Positions 26,035 to 55,010 of a DNA stretch of 64,000 bases are shown here, in pieces (the first letter of the stretch is position 1; every line of letters begins with the position of its first letter). The notes beneath the pieces are model-generated. The model ran no database searches and was not told where the DNA came from. It worked only from the letters and a program-made list of their open reading frames with translations. The position numbers and the translations under genes were made by a program. The stretch is from Escherichia coli (lineage in GTDB: Bacteria; Pseudomonadota; Gammaproteobacteria; Enterobacterales; Enterobacteriaceae): NCBI RefSeq assembly GCF_044324785.1, contig NZ_CP172127.1; one strand, given 5' to 3'.

Positions 26035-26957
26035 CGCTGGCGATTGACAAAACGGCGGCGCTGCTCGTCGTTCATAAAGGTCCAGGCAATAAAGCGACTC
26101 TGCTTTTGCCCCTGGGCCATCTCTTTTTTAACCACCTTCACCGCGCCCACGTCCGTCAGGGCACGATACAACGGCGGTAAGTTTTCACCACGAGATACCA
26201 GTGAGGTAAACCACATCACCTGCTTCGCGAAGCCTTTGCTCTCTTCAATCATCTTTTTGATAAAGGTGACTTCACCGCCTTCACACCACAACTCCTGTTG
26301 CTGGCCGCCAAAGTTCAGTGCATCGTCTTTGTTTAGCCCCAGGTTACGGCGTTTACGTTCACTACCTGCCCGTGCCGCAGCGGCGGAATCGTGGAATGGC
26401 GGGTTACACAAGGTCGCGTCGTATTGCTCGTTTTTATGGATGATGCCGTTAAAAATCGCCCCACTCTCTTTTTGCCGACGCAGACGAATGGCGCGGTTAA
26501 GCCCCGGATTAGCACTGATGATCGCCTGCGCACTGCTTAACGCCTGGCTGCTGGTTTCACTACCAGTAAAACGCCAGCCATATTCATGTACGCCAATCAG
26601 CGGGTAAATACAGTTCGCACCAACGCCGATATCCAGAATGCTGGCATTAGCTGGAATTGTTCCGCTTGCTTCTGCCAGTAAATCGGCAAGGTGATGAATA
26701 TAATCCGCCCGGCCCGGTACTGGTGGGCAGAGAAAACCGTCGGGGATATCCCAGTTCGCTACGGCGTAAAAATGGGCCAGCAACGCCTTATTGAGCGCCT
26801 TCACCGCCAGCGGATTGGCAAAGTCTACGCTTTGCTCCCCGGCGGGTGTAAGCGTGAGGAATTGCCTGAGTTCAGGATTGACCTGACAAAGCGTGGCGAG
26901 ATCGTAGCGGCTGTGATGACGGTTGCGCGGATGCAACCCCGGTTTCTGGGCGGACAT
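26031..26957 (-). CDS. rlmF: 23S rRNA m6A1618 methyltransferase RlmF
   Basis: ORF 26031..27038 (-); start [12 protein letters not shown] at 26957 (308 aa); SAM-dependent MTase motifs. Confidence 0.85.
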
Positions 26958-27232
26958 AGCATTCTCCTTTAAGCAGCGGCGTAAGATACCCGCATAACGC
27001 GACAGGGTAAATATCTGGCTGCGTTTATCATTCCCCAAAACCTTAACATGGCTATGGTTTATGGCAATTCATCATAAAAATCAGCATCATGCATTTCATT
27101 GATTTGTCTTATTTTGTAAAAATATATCGTTCAAAAAATAAGCACATCTCTGTCAATTTTTTGCGTCATTTTCATCGCCCAGGCGACCTACACTTATCAG
27201 GCACTACCCGTTGTATTTATGAGGATGTCATT

Positions 27233-27493
27233 ATGAAAAAGTGCCTCACACTACTGATTGCCACCGTCCTGAGCGGAATCTCTCTCACGGCTTATGCCGC
27301 GCAACCGATGAGTAACCTGGACAGCGGTCAGCTACGGCCCGCCGGTACCGTTTCGGCAACTGGCGCATCAAACCTAAGCGATCTGGAGGATAAACTGGCA
27401 GAAAAAGCGCGCGAGCAAGGCGCGAAAGGTTATGTCATTAATTCCGCAGGCGGAAATGACCAGATGTTCGGTACTGCAACCATCTACAAATAA
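27233..27493 (+). CDS. mcbA: DUF1471 (YdgH/BhsA/McbA-like) periplasmic protein
   Basis: Internal ATG at 27233 of ORF 27089..27493; 86 aa with signal peptide; symbol assigned from K-12 gene order and could be swapped with ybiJ. Confidence 0.7.
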   Translation: MKKCLTLLIATVLSGISLTAYAAQPMSNLDSGQLRPAGTVSATGASNLSDLEDKLAEKAREQGAKGYVINSAGGNDQMFGTATIYK

Positions 27494-27627
27494 CCCCACC
27501 AACGTAACTGCATTCGCCTCTGGATGCAGTTTTCGCCTGTTTTGTAATCAAAAAACATCAAATATGAACGCAATGTAAATAAATGTATTTCTTTTTCGCG
27601 CAATGGGTGATAGAAAATCGCGCCAAG

Positions 27628-27655
27628 TGATAATGCTTATCAAAATTATTATCAC
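27628..27655 (+). promoter_or_regulatory. Fur box upstream of fiu
   Basis: tgataatgcttatcaaaattattatcac matches GATAATGATAATCATTATC-type Fur operator. Confidence 0.75.
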
Positions 27656-27757
27656 TTGCACGAACACTATCACGAGATTAACAGTGGCATCGCATCCGCA
27701 GAGAGGCTTTCTCGTGGCAGTGAAAATTTCAACATATAAGAAAAAGTCACCTGCAAA

Positions 27758-30040
27758 ATGGAAAACAATCGCAATTTCCCTGCCAGACAATTTCATTCGC
27801 TCACGTTCTTTGCCGGTCTTTGTATTGGCATCACGCCTGTGGCTCAGGCACTCGCCGCCGAAGGGCAAGCAAACGCGGATGACACGCTGGTTGTCGAAGC
27901 ATCAACGCCTTCGCTTTATGCGCCACAACAATCTGCTGATCCGAAATTCTCGCGTCCGGTAGCGGATACTACCCGCACGATGACGGTGATTTCTGAACAA
28001 GTGATTAAAGATCAGGGCGCAACCAACCTTACCGACGCGCTCAAAAACGTCCCCGGCGTGGGTGCGTTTTTTGCGGGTGAGAACGGTAACTCCACCACTG
28101 GCGACGCCATTTATATGCGTGGTGCCGATACCTCTAACAGTATTTATATTGATGGCATTCGCGATATCGGCAGCGTCTCGCGCGACACCTTCAATACCGA
28201 GCAGGTCGAAGTGATTAAAGGGCCGTCCGGCACCGACTACGGGCGCAGCGCACCGACGGGCTCGATCAATATGATCAGCAAGCAGCCGCGCAATGACTCA
28301 GGCATTGACGCCTCCGCGAGTATTGGCAGCGCCTGGTTCCGCCGCGGCACGCTGGACGTCAATCAGGTCATTGGTGATACCACTGCGGTGCGCCTGAATG
28401 TGATGGGTGAAAAAACGCACGATGCCGGACGCGACAAAGTCAAAAATGAGCGTTACGGCGTCGCCCCTTCTGTCGCTTTTGGCCTTGGCACAGCGAATCG
28501 TTTGTATCTTAATTATCTACATGTCACCCAGCACAACACGCCAGACGGCGGCATTCCGACCATCGGTTTGCCGGGCTATTCTGCCCCATCTGCGGGAGCG
28601 GCGGCCCTGAATCATTCCGGAAAAGTAGATACGCATAACTTTTATGGCACGGATTCCGATTACGACGATTCGACCACCGATACCGCTACCATGCGTTTTG
28701 AGCACGATATCAACGATAACACCACCATTCGCAATACTACCCGTTGGTCGCGCGTGAAGCAGGATTACCTGATGACGGCGATTATGGGCGGGGCGTCGAA
28801 TATTACCCAGCCCACCAGCGATGTGAATAGCTGGACCTGGTCACGCACGGCGAATACTAAAGATGTGAGTAATAAAATTCTCACCAACCAGACCAACCTG
28901 ACCTCGACGTTCTATACCGGTTCTATCGGTCATGATGTCAGTACCGGCGTGGAATTTACCCGTGAAACGCAGACTAACTACGGCGTTAATCCGGTGACGT
29001 TACCTGCGGTAAATATTTATCATCCTGACAGCAGCATTCATCCCGGCGGCCTGACGCGCAACGGCGCAAACGCCAATGGTCAGACGGATACCTTCGCAAT
29101 TTACGCTTTCGATACGCTGCAAATCACCCGTGATTTTGAGCTGAACGGCGGGATCCGTCTGGATAATTATCATACTGAATATGACAGTGCCACCGCCTGC
29201 GGCGGCAGCGGACGCGGTGCCATCACCTGCCCTGCTGGCGTGGCAAAAGGTTCTCCGGTCACCACCGTCGATACCGCCAAGTCGGGCAATCTGGTGAACT
29301 GGAAAGCCGGGGCGCTGTATCACCTGACGGAAAACGGCAATGTCTATATTAACTATGCTGTTTCCCAGCAGCCTCCGGGCGGCAACAACTTCGCCCTTGC
29401 GCAGTCTGGCAGCGGTAACAGTGCCAACCGCACCGATTTTAAACCGCAAAAAGCCAACACCAGCGAGATTGGCACCAAATGGCAGGTTCTGGATAAACGC
29501 CTGTTGCTCACCGCCGCGCTGTTCCGTACTGATATCGAAAATGAAGTTGAGCAAAATGATGACGGAACTTACTCGCAATACGGTAAGAAACGCGTCGAAG
29601 GCTATGAGATATCCGTGGCCGGGAATATCACTCCCGCGTGGCAGGTGATTGGCGGCTATACCCAGCAAAAAGCAACCATCAAAAACGGCAAAGATGTTGC
29701 CCAGGATGGTTCCTCATCGCTGCCGTATACCCCGGAGCACGCCTTTACCTTATGGAGCCAGTATCAGGCAACCGATGATATTTCCGTTGGTGCGGGCGCA
29801 CGCTATATCGGCAGTATGCATAAAGGTTCTGACGGCGCGGTGGGAACGCCAGCGTTTACCGAAGGTTATTGGGTCGCCGACGCTAAACTGGGGTATCGGG
29901 TTAATCGCAATCTCGACTTCCAGCTAAACGTCTACAACCTGTTTGATACCGATTACGTCGCCTCAATCAACAAGAGCGGCTACCGTTATCACCCGGGCGA
30001 GCCAAGAACCTTCCTGCTCACGGCCAATATGCATTTCTGA
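27758..30040 (+). CDS. fiu: TonB-dependent catecholate siderophore receptor Fiu
   Basis: 760 aa; signal peptide; TonB box region; C-terminal aromatic residue. Confidence 0.9.
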
Positions 30041-30081
30041 TTCAGATGTGGGGCGCAGGCCCCACTTTTTGGAGAACTTGT

Positions 30082-30759
30082 ATGATGTACCACATTCCCG
30101 GCGTGCTATCGCCAAAGGACGTCGCCCGTTTTCGCGAACAACTGGAACAAGCCGAATGGGTGGATGGACGCGTCACCACTGGCGCACAAGGTGCGCAAGT
30201 TAAGAACAATCAACAGGTAGACACCCGCAGCACGTTATACGCCGCCCTGCAAAATGAGGTGCTGAACGCGGTTAACCAACATGCTTTGTTCTTTGCCGCG
30301 GCCTTACCGCGTACCCTTTCCACGCCGCTGTTTAATCGCTATCAGAACAATGAAACCTATGGTTTTCATGTGGATGGCGCAGTACGCAGTCACCCACAAA
30401 ACGGCTGGATGCGCACTGACCTTTCTGCCACACTGTTTTTAAGCGATCCACAAAGCTACGACGGCGGCGAACTGGTCGTTAATGACACCTTCGGACAACA
30501 TCGGGTAAAACTCCCGGCAGGCGATCTGGTGTTGTATCCCTCCAGCAGCTTGCATTGCGTGACACCCGTAACCCGCGGCGTACGAGTGGCATCATTTATG
30601 TGGATCCAGTCGATGATCCGTGATGATAAAAAGCGCGCCATGCTGTTTGAACTGGACAACAATATTCAGTCGCTGAAAAGCCGCTACGGCGAAAGTGAAG
30701 AGATCCTGTCGCTGCTCAATCTTTATCATAATCTGCTGCGGGAATGGTCGGAGATCTGA
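30082..30759 (+). CDS. ybiX: Fe(II)/2-oxoglutarate-dependent oxygenase YbiX (PKHD-type hydroxylase)
   Basis: ORF 30046..30759; ATG at 30082 has GGAG upstream; 225 aa. Confidence 0.85.
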
Positions 30760-30832
30760 CGCTTGAACTGCCCGAGTTCGTCCCTATATTAGCTACACTT
30801 AACTGTACAAGTATTGATATGGGGAGGACGAT

Positions 30833-31099
30833 ATGGCATCCGGTTGGGCTAACGATGACGCCGTCAACGAACAGATCAACAGTACAATTGAAGATGCGAT
30901 TGCCCGCGCTCGGGGTGAAATTCCGCGTGGTGAAAGCCTGTATGAATGTGAAGAGTGCGGCGCACCTATCCCACAGGCCCGTCGGGAAGCCATTCCTGGC
31001 GTGCGCTTATGCATTCATTGTCAGCAGGAGAAAGATTTACAAAAACCAGCTTATACAGGATATAATCGCAGAGGTTCGAAAGACAGCCAGTTACGTTAA
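30833..31099 (+). CDS. ybiI: DksA/TraR-family C4-type zinc finger protein YbiI
   Basis: 88 aa with CxxC...CxxC (CEECG...CIHC). Confidence 0.85.
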   Translation: MASGWANDDAVNEQINSTIEDAIARARGEIPRGESLYECEECGAPIPQARREAIPGVRLCIHCQQEKDLQKPAYTGYNRRGSKDSQLR

Positions 31100-31363
31100 C
31101 TACAACTGGCGGGATGTATAGCGAGTATAATTTGTATTTTGCGTGGCATTCCGTGCCTTTAACGCTGTCGTGACTGCCACGCTGCATAAAACAAGTCCAT
31201 AAGTTCAACAAATAAATGGATTATCAGTATGTTAGATATCAATCAATTTATTTGAACAAGGCGGTCAATTCTCTTCGATTTTATCTCTCGAAAAAAAACG
31301 TGATACTCATCACATCGACGAAACAACGTCACTTATACAAAAATCACCTGCGAGAGATTAATT

Positions 31364-31624
31364 ATGAAAACTATCAATACTGTTGTTGCTGCTATGGCTC
31401 TTTCAACTCTGTCATTTGGCGTGTTTGCCGCGGAACCGGTAACGGCATCCCAGGCACAGAACATGAATAAAATCGGCGTGGTTTCTGCCGATGGCGCATC
31501 CACCCTCGATGCCCTGGAAGCGAAACTGGCTGAGAAAGCTGCGGCAGCTGGGGCGAGTGGATACAGCATCACTTCTGCCACCAACAACAATAAATTAAGC
31601 GGTACTGCGGTAATTTATAAGTAA
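31364..31624 (+). CDS. ybiJ: DUF1471 periplasmic protein (paralogue of the gene at 27233)
   Basis: 86 aa with signal peptide; symbol by gene order. Confidence 0.7.
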   Translation: MKTINTVVAAMALSTLSFGVFAAEPVTASQAQNMNKIGVVSADGASTLDALEAKLAEKAAAAGASGYSITSATNNNKLSGTAVIYK

Positions 31625-31735
31625 TTCGTAAGCCGGATCAGTCGTTTACGCTACGTCCAGCACAAGTATTTCCCTGTCTGTTTGCCGACAGACGCATATG
31701 CTCTAACCCTCATTGATCCTATATTACCCTTGTTT

Positions 31736-31764
31736 GCCCGTCCGTTACTGGACGGGCTTTTTTG
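31736..31764 (+). terminator. rho-independent terminator downstream of ybiJ
   Basis: gcccgtccgttactggacgggc followed by ttttttg. Confidence 0.7.
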
Positions 31765-32473
31765 TGCACAGAAAACCCCCAGCTAGGCTGGGGGTTCCGG
31801 AAAGCTTTCAGCTTTGAGCCAGTTATTAAAACCCCTTTTGATTTGTTAAAACACCTTGCGGTCTGGCAACTGCAAGTGTCAAACAAGAAATCAAAAGGGG
31901 GTCCCAATGGGGGACGAAAAGAGCTTAGCGCACACCCGCTGGAACTGTAAATATCACATAGTTTTTGCGCCGAAATACCGAAGACTGGCGTTTTACGGAG
32001 AGAAGCGTAGGGCGATAGGCAGTATTTTGAGAAAGCTGTGTGAGTGGAAAAGCGTACGGATTCTGGAAGCAGAGTGCTGCGCAGATCATATCCATATGCT
32101 TGTGGAAATCCCACCCAAAATGAGCGTATCCGGCTTTATGGGATATCTGAAAGGGAAAAGCAGTCTGATGCTTTACGAGCAGTTTGGGGATTTGAAATTC
32201 AAATACAGAAACAGGGAGTTCTGGTGCCGAGGGTACTATGTCGATACGGTGGGTAAGAACACGGCGAAGATACAGGACTACATAAAGCACCAGCTTGAAG
32301 AGGATAAAATGGGGGAGCAGTTATCGATTCCATATCCGGGCAGCCCGTTTACGGGCCGTAAGTAACGAAGTTGAATGCAAATGTCAGATCGTATGCGCCT
32401 GTTAGGGCGCGGCTGGTAACAGAGCCTTACAGGCGCATTTGAAAAACCTCCGGCTATGCCGGAGGATATTTAT
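31758..32473 (+). mobile_element. IS200 insertion sequence (ends approximate)
   Basis: Y1 transposase gene flanked by similar subterminal hairpins (cccccagc-tag-gctggggg at 31776-31794 and cctccggc-tat-gccggagg at 32447-32465); RBS-sequestering stem-loop at 31829-31904; about 0.7 kb. Confidence 0.75.
31907..32365 (+). CDS. tnpA: IS200 transposase TnpA (Y1/HUH)
   Basis: ORF 31856..32365; start MGDEKSLAHTRWNC at 31907 (152 aa); HUH motif HIHMLVEI and catalytic Tyr region. Confidence 0.9.
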   Translation: MGDEKSLAHTRWNCKYHIVFAPKYRRLAFYGEKRRAIGSILRKLCEWKSVRILEAECCADHIHMLVEIPPKMSVSGFMGYLKGKSSLMLYEQFGDLKFKYRNREFWCRGYYVDTVGKNTAKIQDYIKHQLEEDKMGEQLSIPYPGSPFTGRK

Positions 32474-33694
<1,221 letters not shown>

Positions 33695-53873: not shown

Positions 53874-54863
53874 TTAGCCGCCAATGTACGATAAGTTTTG
53901 CGTAATACCGGTGTTGTTTTGATGCAGGAAATGGGTCTGTTTCTTCTCCCGCAGCGCCGCTGAAATACGCGCTTCCAGCGCCTGTTGCTGGGTATCGTCT
54001 TCCAGCAGATCGCGCAGGTTAACGCCGCCTTCACCAAACAGGCAGAGATGGAGTTTACCAGTGGAGGAAACGCGCAGGCGGTTGCAAGTGGCGCAGAAGT
54101 CTTTTTCATACGGCATGATAAGGCCAATCTCTCCGGCGTAATCCGGATGACAAAAGACTTGCGCGGGACCGTCGCTGCGTTGACGTAATTGGTGGATCCA
54201 GCCGCGACGCAGTAGCTCGTCACGCAGAACCTGACCAGAGATGTGATGCTTACGGAAGAGCTCGCTGCCCTCGCCCGTTTCCATCAATTCGATGAAACGC
54301 AGCTGGATAGGGCGATGCTGGATCCAGTTCAGAAAGGTGTCGAGCTGATGATGATTAACATCACGCATCAGCACGGTATTGACTTTGACCTTCTCAAAAC
54401 CGGCCTCAAATGCAGCATCGATCCCTGCCATGACCTGGTTGAATTTATCCTGCCCGGTAATGGCATGAAACTGGCGAGCGTCAAGGCTATCAACGCTGAC
54501 GTTGATGCCAGTAAGTCCCGCATCGCGCCAGTTCGCCACATCGCGTTCCAGACGGTAACCATTGGTGGTGACCGCAATCTGGCGGATAGCGTCGTTTTCC
54601 CGCACAGCGACGATGATATCGGTAAAGTCGCGGCGTAAAGACGGCTCACCGCCTGTCAGGCGCACTTTTTCGGTGCCCAGACTGGCAAAGGCGCGCGTAA
54701 CCCGGCGAATTTCATCGACGGTAAGAAAGCCTTTATTGGTGACGCCGCTCGGTTTGTAGCCATCCGGCAGGCAGTAGGTGCAACGAAAGTTACACACATC
54801 AGTAATCGACAGGCGCAAGTAGTAAAACTTACGCGCAAATGCATCAGTCAGTTGTGAAGCCAT
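53874..54863 (-). CDS. moaA: GTP 3',8-cyclase MoaA (radical SAM)
   Basis: ORF 53874..54944 (-); start [19 protein letters not shown] at 54863 (329 aa); CxxxCxxC motif CNFRCTYC. Confidence 0.9.
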
Positions 54864-54869
54864 GTACAC

Positions 54870-55010
54870 CTTTCCAGATACGGGAGGCGAAGTCATTTCT
54901 TCCTTCGCCCTGGTGGCAATCTTTACGAGCATTGTCACGGCCAAAGCACCGTATCAGTTGACCCAGGTGCAGAGGCTAGAGTGTTTAGTGGTTAAGCCGA
55001 TACTAGCGTG
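54870..55010 (-). ncRNA. candidate molybdenum cofactor (Moco) riboswitch in the moaA leader (boundaries approximate)
   Basis: Long leader between promoter and moaA start; placement follows the known Moco RNA motif upstream of moaA; I did not fold it or score a covariance model. Confidence 0.45.

Follow-up and report, generated by a model that had tools for sequence, protein, structure and literature searches.

mcbA and ybiJ, two DUF1471 genes on either side of fiu-ybiX-ybiI in Escherichia coli

Genes and encoded proteins of the locus

The window analysed here, a 64-kb stretch of the Escherichia coli chromosome (contig NZ_CP172127.1) whose orientation is reversed relative to K-12, contains two genes for small proteins of the DUF1471 family, mcbA (also named ybiM) and ybiJ, which bracket the iron-responsive genes fiu, ybiX and ybiI. 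A preliminary description had pointed to this arrangement, with the implication of iron co-regulation or of a functional tie to the siderophore receptor in the middle. We consider another account quite probable: mcbA and ybiJ, both known genes, would form separate transcription units derived from an old duplication, and the bracketing would be a by-product of genome history. The region from 26500 to 32500 is present at 95–99% identity in 5415 of the 5426 complete E. coli genomes, and according to RefSeq the genes of a collinear strain, like those of K-12, are arranged as ybiO, rlmF (− strand), mcbA, fiu, ybiX, ybiI, ybiJ, hcxB (− strand).

The two 86-amino acid open reading frames (ORFs) lie on the + strand where they had been reported: mcbA at 27233–27493 (annotated by RefSeq in strain 98210 and as b0806 in K-12) and ybiJ at 31364–31624 (K-12 b0802). 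The identities proposed for the genes of the locus were right, as was the family assignment. Both proteins span the entire PF07338 profile (YdgH_BhsA-like, formerly DUF1471; positions 1–55 of 55), McbA with 69.8 bits (2e-19) and YbiJ with 64.8 bits (7e-18) for a gathering cutoff of 27, and a six-frame phmmer scan found no other DUF1471 ORF in the window. Their C-termini read exactly as quoted earlier (GYVINSAGGNDQMFGTATIYK in McbA and GYSITSATNNNKLSGTAVIYK in YbiJ), and the proteins are paralogues, with 47% identity (E = 7e-16) in a gap-free alignment over their full length. By inspection, each protein starts with what looks like a Sec signal peptide (MKKCLTLLIATVLSGISLTAYA followed by AQP in McbA, MKTINTVVAAMALSTLSFGVFA followed by AEP in YbiJ), in which a basic N-region precedes a hydrophobic core and a small-x-small site (AYA or VFA, followed by A). 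Residues 1–20 of McbA have a low predicted local distance difference test score (pLDDT) in its AlphaFold2 model, the RefSeq product name of McbA includes the word ‘periplasmic’, and a fusion of YbiJ to monomeric superfolder green fluorescent protein (YbiJ-msfGFP) was reported to be envelope-enriched.

The core of the McbA model (pLDDT ~90) is of beta-alpha-beta-beta type, with a strand at residues 36–45, a helix at 48–61 and strands at 66–73 and 78–85. Its top Foldseek matches were 2JNA/2MA8 (SrfN), 4EVU and 2M2J (YdgH), and 2NOC, and YahO was among the matched structures; by sequence, both McbA and YbiJ match structures 2NOC and 2MA4. As modelled, McbA fits the mixed alpha + beta DUF1471 fold shared with SrfN, YahO and YdgH. 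After these came RcsF (PDB 2Y1B), with a Foldseek probability of 1.00, a template modelling (TM) score of 0.55 and a root-mean-square deviation of 2.2 Å at 13% identity. As judged from sequence, each protein is thus most likely a Sec-exported periplasmic protein of ~64 residues with a DUF1471 fold. An in-frame ATG at 27089 would lengthen the mcbA ORF to 134 amino acids (extension 27089–27232), the annotated start being at 27233, and public databases also hold 104-, 114-, 133- and 134-amino acid versions of McbA. These longer versions look like start-codon miscalls and not genuine isoforms.

Between the two genes lie, all on the + strand, fiu (27758–30040), annotated as the catecholate siderophore TonB-dependent receptor with Plug and TonB_dep_Rec_b-barrel domains, ybiX (30082–30759), annotated as a PKHD-type 2-oxoglutarate (2OG)-Fe(II) hydroxylase with domains PF13640 (2OG-Fe(II) oxygenase) and PF18331 (PKHD_C), and ybiI (30833–31099), coding for a DksA/TraR C4 zinc-finger protein (PF01258). 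The view of these three genes as iron-responsive was borne out. A search of the window for the Fur consensus at up to 3 mismatches gave no match and was hence relaxed to a scan ranked by mismatches, in which the best site of all 64 kb was at 27629–27653 (+ strand; overlapping matches with 4 mismatches to the 19-bp consensus), over the fiu promoter and overlapping its promoter-like −10 element GATAAT. A 4-mismatch Fur site precedes fiu in every fiu-bearing locus that was fetched. This agrees with the assignment of fiu to the core Fur regulon and, in the quoted portion of the source, the listing of all three genes under the Fur-1 iModulon (PMC10164565).

Two features interrupt the series. The gap between fiu and ybiX holds a GC-rich hairpin followed by UUUUU (30048–30065, + strand; terminator scan, −19.3 kcal/mol, z = −3.9), a candidate attenuating terminator that could possibly uncouple receptor and oxygenase levels in the Fur-controlled transcript. 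The spacer between ybiX and ybiI carries a promoter-like site (TTGAAC-16-TATATT; 30763–30790, + strand), which is retained in E. albertii despite the loss of fiu-ybiX, and this spacer was bound by sigma-S and other holoenzymes in genomic SELEX (systematic evolution of ligands by exponential enrichment; PMC5493296). The hairpin and the promoter-like site together suggest that the three genes are co-expressed without forming a simple uninterrupted operon.

Signals around mcbA, ybiJ and ZbiJ

No Fur-like site was found upstream of mcbA or ybiJ, the best sequences having 7–10 mismatches in 18 loci (that of E. coli and 17 others), and both genes are absent from the Fur-1 iModulon table as far as it is quoted (PMC10164565). 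The mcbA gene is followed by an intrinsic-terminator-like hairpin with UUUU (27507–27533, + strand; −14.1 kcal/mol, z = −3.6), whose arms are kept in E. albertii, Citrobacter and Enterobacter. The spacer between mcbA and fiu, which holds the fiu promoter and its Fur box, is 264 bp long; a spacer of 264 bp also lies upstream of ybiJ, and its proximal 140 bp are ~80–87% conserved between genera. The terminator hairpin of ybiJ and ZbiJ (see below) has a z-score of −4.0. With a terminator and the fiu promoter between mcbA and fiu, and a conserved promoter region of its own for ybiJ, mcbA and ybiJ do not share a single operon with fiu-ybiX-ybiI, and they lie outside that unit.

Other regulators are documented for both genes. 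McbR (YncC) represses mcbA according to Zhang et al. 2008, as reported in papers that cite this work. An inverted-repeat search for an operator of this GntR-type protein upstream of mcbA gave only imperfect AT-rich repeats (27071–27163), and since they could not be tied to a published site, no McbR box is claimed. YhaJ, a LysR-type protein, activates ybiJ, and induction by hydroquinone shows a ‘significant decrease’ upon mutation of positions −120 and −112/−111 (PMC5031710). Counted from the ybiJ ATG, these positions fall within a TCA-N7-TGA box at 31243–31255 (+ strand), of which the TCA and the GA are invariant in an alignment of 11 taxa. ybiJ was also found to be strongly induced at pH 4.4 (log2 fold change 5.9). 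The same alignment displays a nearly invariant palindrome, GTGATACTyATCAC (31300–31313, + strand), in the ybiJ promoter region ~55 nt 5′ of the ybiJ start; it does not coincide with the YhaJ box, and no regulator was found assigned to it. A second invariant block, TCAATTCTCTTCGATTTT (31265–31282), lies beside it.

Just 3′ of the ybiJ stop codon, beyond the coordinates covered by the preliminary description, are two features annotated in K-12. The small RNA (sRNA) ZbiJ (asYbiE; K-12 b4814) derives from the ybiJ 3′ untranslated region (3′UTR) at 31669–31765 (+ strand) and ends in a terminator hairpin (31736–31757) followed by U6. Its region is 96.9% identical to that of K-12 over 130 nt, its predicted fold has an energy of −26.6 kcal/mol (z = −4.6), and its 3′ 65 nt are 80–87% conserved in Citrobacter, Enterobacter and Lelliottia. 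The literature describes ZbiJ as an Hfq-associated sRNA made from the ybiJ transcript, whose overexpression represses rpoS translation. On the opposite strand, antisense to the 5′ part of ZbiJ, ybiE (31638–31697, − strand; K-12 b4769) codes for a 19-amino acid protein; the ORF is intact (MRLSANRQGNTCAGRSVND) and ends in SVND and not in SVNA. An ~89-nt element resembling a repetitive extragenic palindromic (REP) sequence, which lies between the ybiJ stop and ZbiJ in K-12 (837567–837655) and in the GTDB representative E. coli, is found neither in the window (31625–31650) nor in strain 98210.

Further downstream, an IS200 copy (31764–32468, + strand; tnpA 31907–32365) interrupts the U-tract of the ZbiJ terminator, as seen from the break in homology to K-12, the Y1_Tnp domain and an Rfam STnc490 match at 31774–31897. 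The insertion cut the U-run from 8 to 6, its junction is 1–5 nt from the hcxB stop codon, and it supplies hcxB with a new downstream terminator hairpin (32447–32465). This junction occurs in 2 of the 5426 complete E. coli genomes, those of strains N3 (100% identity) and 98210 (97%). Elsewhere in the window, at 54851–54995 (− strand), is a molybdenum cofactor (Moco) riboswitch (103 bits, gathering score 36), unrelated to the DUF1471 pair, which we take to be the element expected upstream of moaA in E. coli.

The signals around ybiJ bear on a first alternative, that ybiI-ybiJ-ZbiJ is itself the meaningful unit, transcribed in part from the Fur-controlled fiu-ybiX-ybiI message, with ZbiJ feeding back on iron-uptake mRNAs. 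In 23 of the 25 loci compared below, ybiJ is the neighbour of ybiI at a distance that hardly varies, and ybiI belongs to the Fur-1 iModulon. Folding detected no significant hairpin 3′ of ybiI (z = −0.7), so that transcription under Fur control may to some extent continue into ybiJ and ZbiJ. The seed region of ZbiJ is conserved between genera, and RIL-seq (RNA interaction by ligation and sequencing) is reported to have recovered chimeras between fepA and RNA from the ybiJ-hcxB spacer (ZbiJ), mostly in iron-starved cells. However, ybiJ is not in the quoted part of the Fur-1 listing, its promoter region with the YhaJ box is conserved independently, Pluralibacter has ybiJ without ybiI, and the demonstrated target of ZbiJ is rpoS. 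A duplex screen of ZbiJ against the translation-initiation regions of mcbA, fiu, ybiX, ybiI and ybiJ, with energies that are unrealistically long-range, gave no outstanding local target, the best being ybiI at rank 7/48 against 48 proxy genes. We therefore regard this alternative as quite unlikely.

Variation among relatives and origin of the pair

A scan of a genome collection with YbiJ gave 25 loci with a full-length orthologue (74–100% identity), from Escherichia, Citrobacter, Enterobacter, Lelliottia, Pluralibacter, Pseudocitrobacter, Pseudescherichia and Superficieibacter. One further match was a distant paralogue-like protein in Yersinia, and five loci (Kluyvera and others) were dropped, as they matched in the signal peptide only (25–27 residues) and had no syntenic genes. 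Confirmed loci and named homologues all belong to the Enterobacteriaceae or to Yersinia, in agreement with the restriction of DUF1471 to Enterobacterales in the literature. The order rlmF-mcbA-slot-ybiI-ybiJ-(hcxB)-ybiB recurs in Escherichia, Citrobacter, Enterobacter and Lelliottia. It is the slot that varies: (i) it is filled by fiu-ybiX in E. coli and in four Citrobacter genomes; (ii) nothing occupies it in E. albertii, C. werkmanii, C. youngae ATCC 29220, one metagenome-assembled genome or any of the Enterobacter and Lelliottia loci; and (iii) in Pseudescherichia vulneris it holds a 7.6-kb block (L016, 807–8448) with genes for an M20 peptidase, an ATC hydrolase, a Liv-type ATP-binding cassette (ABC) transporter and a LysR regulator. 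Altogether, fiu-ybiX is missing from 12 of the 20 loci that have both mcbA and ybiJ. Further layouts exist. In Pluralibacter an mcbA-like gene is directly followed by ybiJ, without ybiI; Pseudocitrobacter has fiu-ybiX-ybiI-ybiJ without mcbA or rlmF upstream, BglG-like and OprD-like genes lying 5′ of fiu (L014, 2611–4988); and a flavin-reductase-like gene replaces mcbA in Superficieibacter (L018, 7475–8110). Salmonella is reported to lack McbA.

Some of the empty slots retain scars. That of E. albertii consists of a 35-nt remnant of the 5′ coding end of fiu and the last 17 nt of ybiX, whereas in C. werkmanii and C. youngae ATCC 29220 the mcbA terminator is closely followed by the final ~23 nt of ybiX (scar coordinates in these relatives: L004, 6777–6999; L011, 8287–8432; L012, 8289–8432). 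The deletion junctions thus differ between E. albertii and the two Citrobacter, which points to independent events. Because the ybiX 3′ remnants persist, together with the fiu 5′ remnant in E. albertii, the possibility that the empty slot is ancestral and fiu-ybiX a recent insertion was ruled out in these three genomes. With the deleted segment the Fur box is gone as well, and ybiI is therefore expected to be free of Fur control there. It appears that ybiI-ybiJ-ZbiJ is the conserved core of the locus, the mcbA-ybiI junction a variable slot and fiu-ybiX dispensable cargo.

These data allow the functional coupling of the bracketing genes to the receptor to be assessed, i.e. the notion that McbA and/or YbiJ are iron-responsive periplasmic accessory factors of Fiu or of catecholate-iron handling. 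In its favour, mcbA, ybiJ and fiu are close together on one strand, the DUF1471 fold resembles that of RcsF, which docks into outer-membrane barrels, and the induction of ybiJ at pH 4.4 goes along with that of Fur-regulon genes such as fhuF and nrdHI; the ZbiJ-fepA chimeras of iron-starved cells can be counted here too. Against this stand the lack of a Fur box at either gene in the 18 loci and of either gene in the quoted Fur-1 table. Moreover, both DUF1471 genes persist without fiu-ybiX in E. albertii, two Citrobacter, Enterobacter and Lelliottia, while Pseudocitrobacter keeps fiu-ybiX-ybiI-ybiJ without mcbA and Salmonella reportedly lacks McbA. Both fiu-ybiX and mcbA are present or absent irrespective of ybiJ, a pattern that speaks against an obligate functional tie. 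The meaning initially implied for the bracketing is therefore not upheld: besides the missing Fur boxes and Fur-1 listing, the terminators and regulators that the two genes have of their own do not favour it, nor does the loss or replacement of fiu-ybiX in many relatives. We consider functional coupling highly improbable.

The origin of the pair was addressed with a neighbour-joining tree of 38 DUF1471 domains (60 columns, 300 bootstrap replicates), comprising the syntenic McbA-like and YbiJ proteins and, from K-12, BhsA, YhcN, YjfN, BsmA, YjfY, YahO and the three YdgH domains; the paralogues were drawn from K-12 loci because the top 120 McbA homologue matches contained orthologues only. The McbA and YbiJ clades each received 95% bootstrap support, and McbA, YbiJ and BhsA clustered together in 256 of the 300 replicates. 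McbA grouped with YbiJ in 150 of the 300 replicates, YbiJ with BhsA in 76 and McbA with BhsA in 26. The sister support is weak since the DUF1471 domain is short. Divergence between genera was faster in McbA-like proteins (58–73% identity) than in YbiJ (74–84%). By hand arithmetic that assumes ~10 DUF1471 genes in a 4.64-Mb genome, the chance of a given DUF1471 pair lying within 4.4 kb is ~0.002, and that for any of the 45 pairs ~0.08; the preservation of the mcbA-ybiJ proximity across genera indicates that it is inherited and not coincidental.

Taken together, the tree, the common orientation of the two genes, their conserved synteny and their being neighbours in Pluralibacter favour an old local duplication, and mcbA and ybiJ most likely descend from such an event next to ybiI, as far as sequence comparison can tell. 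One could instead suppose that a bhsA-like gene gave rise to mcbA, which reached the vicinity of ybiJ in a separate transfer or translocation event. This would suit the similarity of McbA to BhsA, which equals that to YbiJ (47%, Eletsky et al.), the recovery of McbA + YbiJ in just half of the replicates and the absence of mcbA from Pseudocitrobacter, Superficieibacter and, reportedly, Salmonella. Yet McbA + YbiJ was still the commonest grouping (150 versus 76 and 26), the orientation of mcbA and its position next to rlmF are conserved in five genera, mcbA and ybiJ are adjacent in Pluralibacter, and other adjacent DUF1471 pairs exist (yjfN-bsmA). Independent arrival thus seems unlikely.

Interpretation and related systems

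The account that we consider quite probable would then run as follows. A local duplication beside ybiI would have produced the pair, leaving a ybiI-ybiJ-ZbiJ core with mcbA upstream in most of the sampled genera, and each of the two genes would be a separate single-gene transcription unit. The Fur-repressed fiu-ybiX pair, a self-contained receptor-oxygenase module of a type widespread in Proteobacteria, occupies the slot between mcbA and ybiI. Because this slot is variable, the bracketing is best seen as a by-product of genome history that defines neither an operon nor a functional unit. Fur would act at the fiu promoter and reach ybiX and probably ybiI, whereas mcbA is repressed by McbR and ybiJ is induced by YhaJ (in response to hydroquinone-type aromatics) and by low pH, its transcript also giving rise to the Hfq-associated ZbiJ. 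By analogy with their relatives, McbA and YbiJ may contact outer-membrane or periplasmic partners, with consequences for permeability, protease targeting or Rcs/colanic-acid signalling.

Several observations weigh against this account. With respect to the duplication, McbA and YbiJ are sisters with only ~50% bootstrap support and McbA is equally close to BhsA. With respect to the history of the slot, those of Enterobacter and Lelliottia have no detectable scars and are compatible with loss of fiu-ybiX or with its never having been gained, and the scan gave no Salmonella or Klebsiella locus. As for separation from iron, ybiJ rises with Fur-regulon genes at pH 4.4, no significant hairpin follows ybiI, and ZbiJ forms chimeras with fepA; an indirect connection of the ybiJ unit to iron, through the sRNA rather than through DUF1471 bracketing, is possible, although its probability is low. 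A broader version would tie the ybiJ unit to catechol/iron chemistry, linking the response of YhaJ to benzenediol aromatics, the import of catecholate breakdown products by Fiu, ZbiJ-fepA pairing and the docking of YbiJ or McbA on TonB-dependent barrels such as Fiu. If true, the locus would be a loosely linked catecholate-handling module with protein, sRNA and receptor layers; we hold this to be very unlikely.

Both genes, their paralogy, the control of fiu by Fur and the obscure function of the family are already in the literature and in RefSeq, and the earlier remark on a poorly understood family with links to stress and biofilm agrees with published work. The useful outcome is a negative one, namely that the bracketing provides no evidence for a role of DUF1471 proteins in iron uptake. 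A modest comparative addition is the variable slot between mcbA and ybiI, from which fiu-ybiX was repeatedly lost with visible scars. E. albertii and some Citrobacter offer natural ‘deletion mutants’ in which it could be tested whether the DUF1471 genes are independent of Fiu.

The genes themselves are those of K-12, McbA/YbiM (b0806) and YbiJ (b0802), with 99–100% protein identity and the same neighbours in the same order; downstream, this strain differs from K-12 by lacking the ~89-nt REP element and by carrying IS200 after the ZbiJ terminator. BhsA/YcfR (b1112) is the third member of the McbA/YbiJ sub-branch (the 256/300 grouping). Like ybiJ, bhsA has an annotated 3′UTR-derived sRNA, BhsB (L033, 1304–1403; K-12 1169303–1169402), whereas mcbA, unlike both, has a short terminator only and no annotated sRNA. 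BhsA is stress-induced, its locus is unlinked and lies beside comR, and its phenotypes are not known from McbA or YbiJ. It lowers the copper permeability of the envelope, and another family member, YjfN, activates DegP (PMC12096828). Overproduction of McbA leads to colanic-acid mucoidy, an Rcs-type output, deletion of ybiJ gives a phenotype resembling that of elyC mutants, and in Salmonella it lowers survival in egg white. By analogy, McbA and YbiJ are probably small stress-induced periplasmic binders that modulate envelope properties. The fold of RcsF (PDB 2Y1B) is similar to the core of the McbA model at only 13% identity; such a likeness is already published for YbiJ and RclB (PMC12096828), and the model would extend it to McbA. 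No lipobox was found, the sole Cys of McbA being residue 4 and YbiJ having none, and since a lipidated N-terminal tail is lacking too, the two proteins are neither lipoproteins nor members of the RcsF family.

As a pair, mcbA and ybiJ recall yjfN and bsmA of E. coli, neighbouring DUF1471 paralogues that Eletsky et al. cite as evidence that the family grew by local duplication. The difference is that yjfN and bsmA are directly adjacent, 148 bp apart, whereas mcbA and ybiJ are split in E. coli by 3.9 kb of unrelated genes. Fiu-YbiX, for its part, is the same module as PiuA-PiuC of Pseudomonas and Acinetobacter and CciT-CciO of Caulobacter, with a gene for a TonB-dependent receptor under Fur control and, after it, one for a 2OG-Fe(II) oxygenase (PMC12004943), and the conservation of this pair elsewhere fits the behaviour of fiu-ybiX as a cassette. 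Unlike Fiu-YbiX, these modules have no DUF1471 flanks, the family being reported as confined to Enterobacterales.

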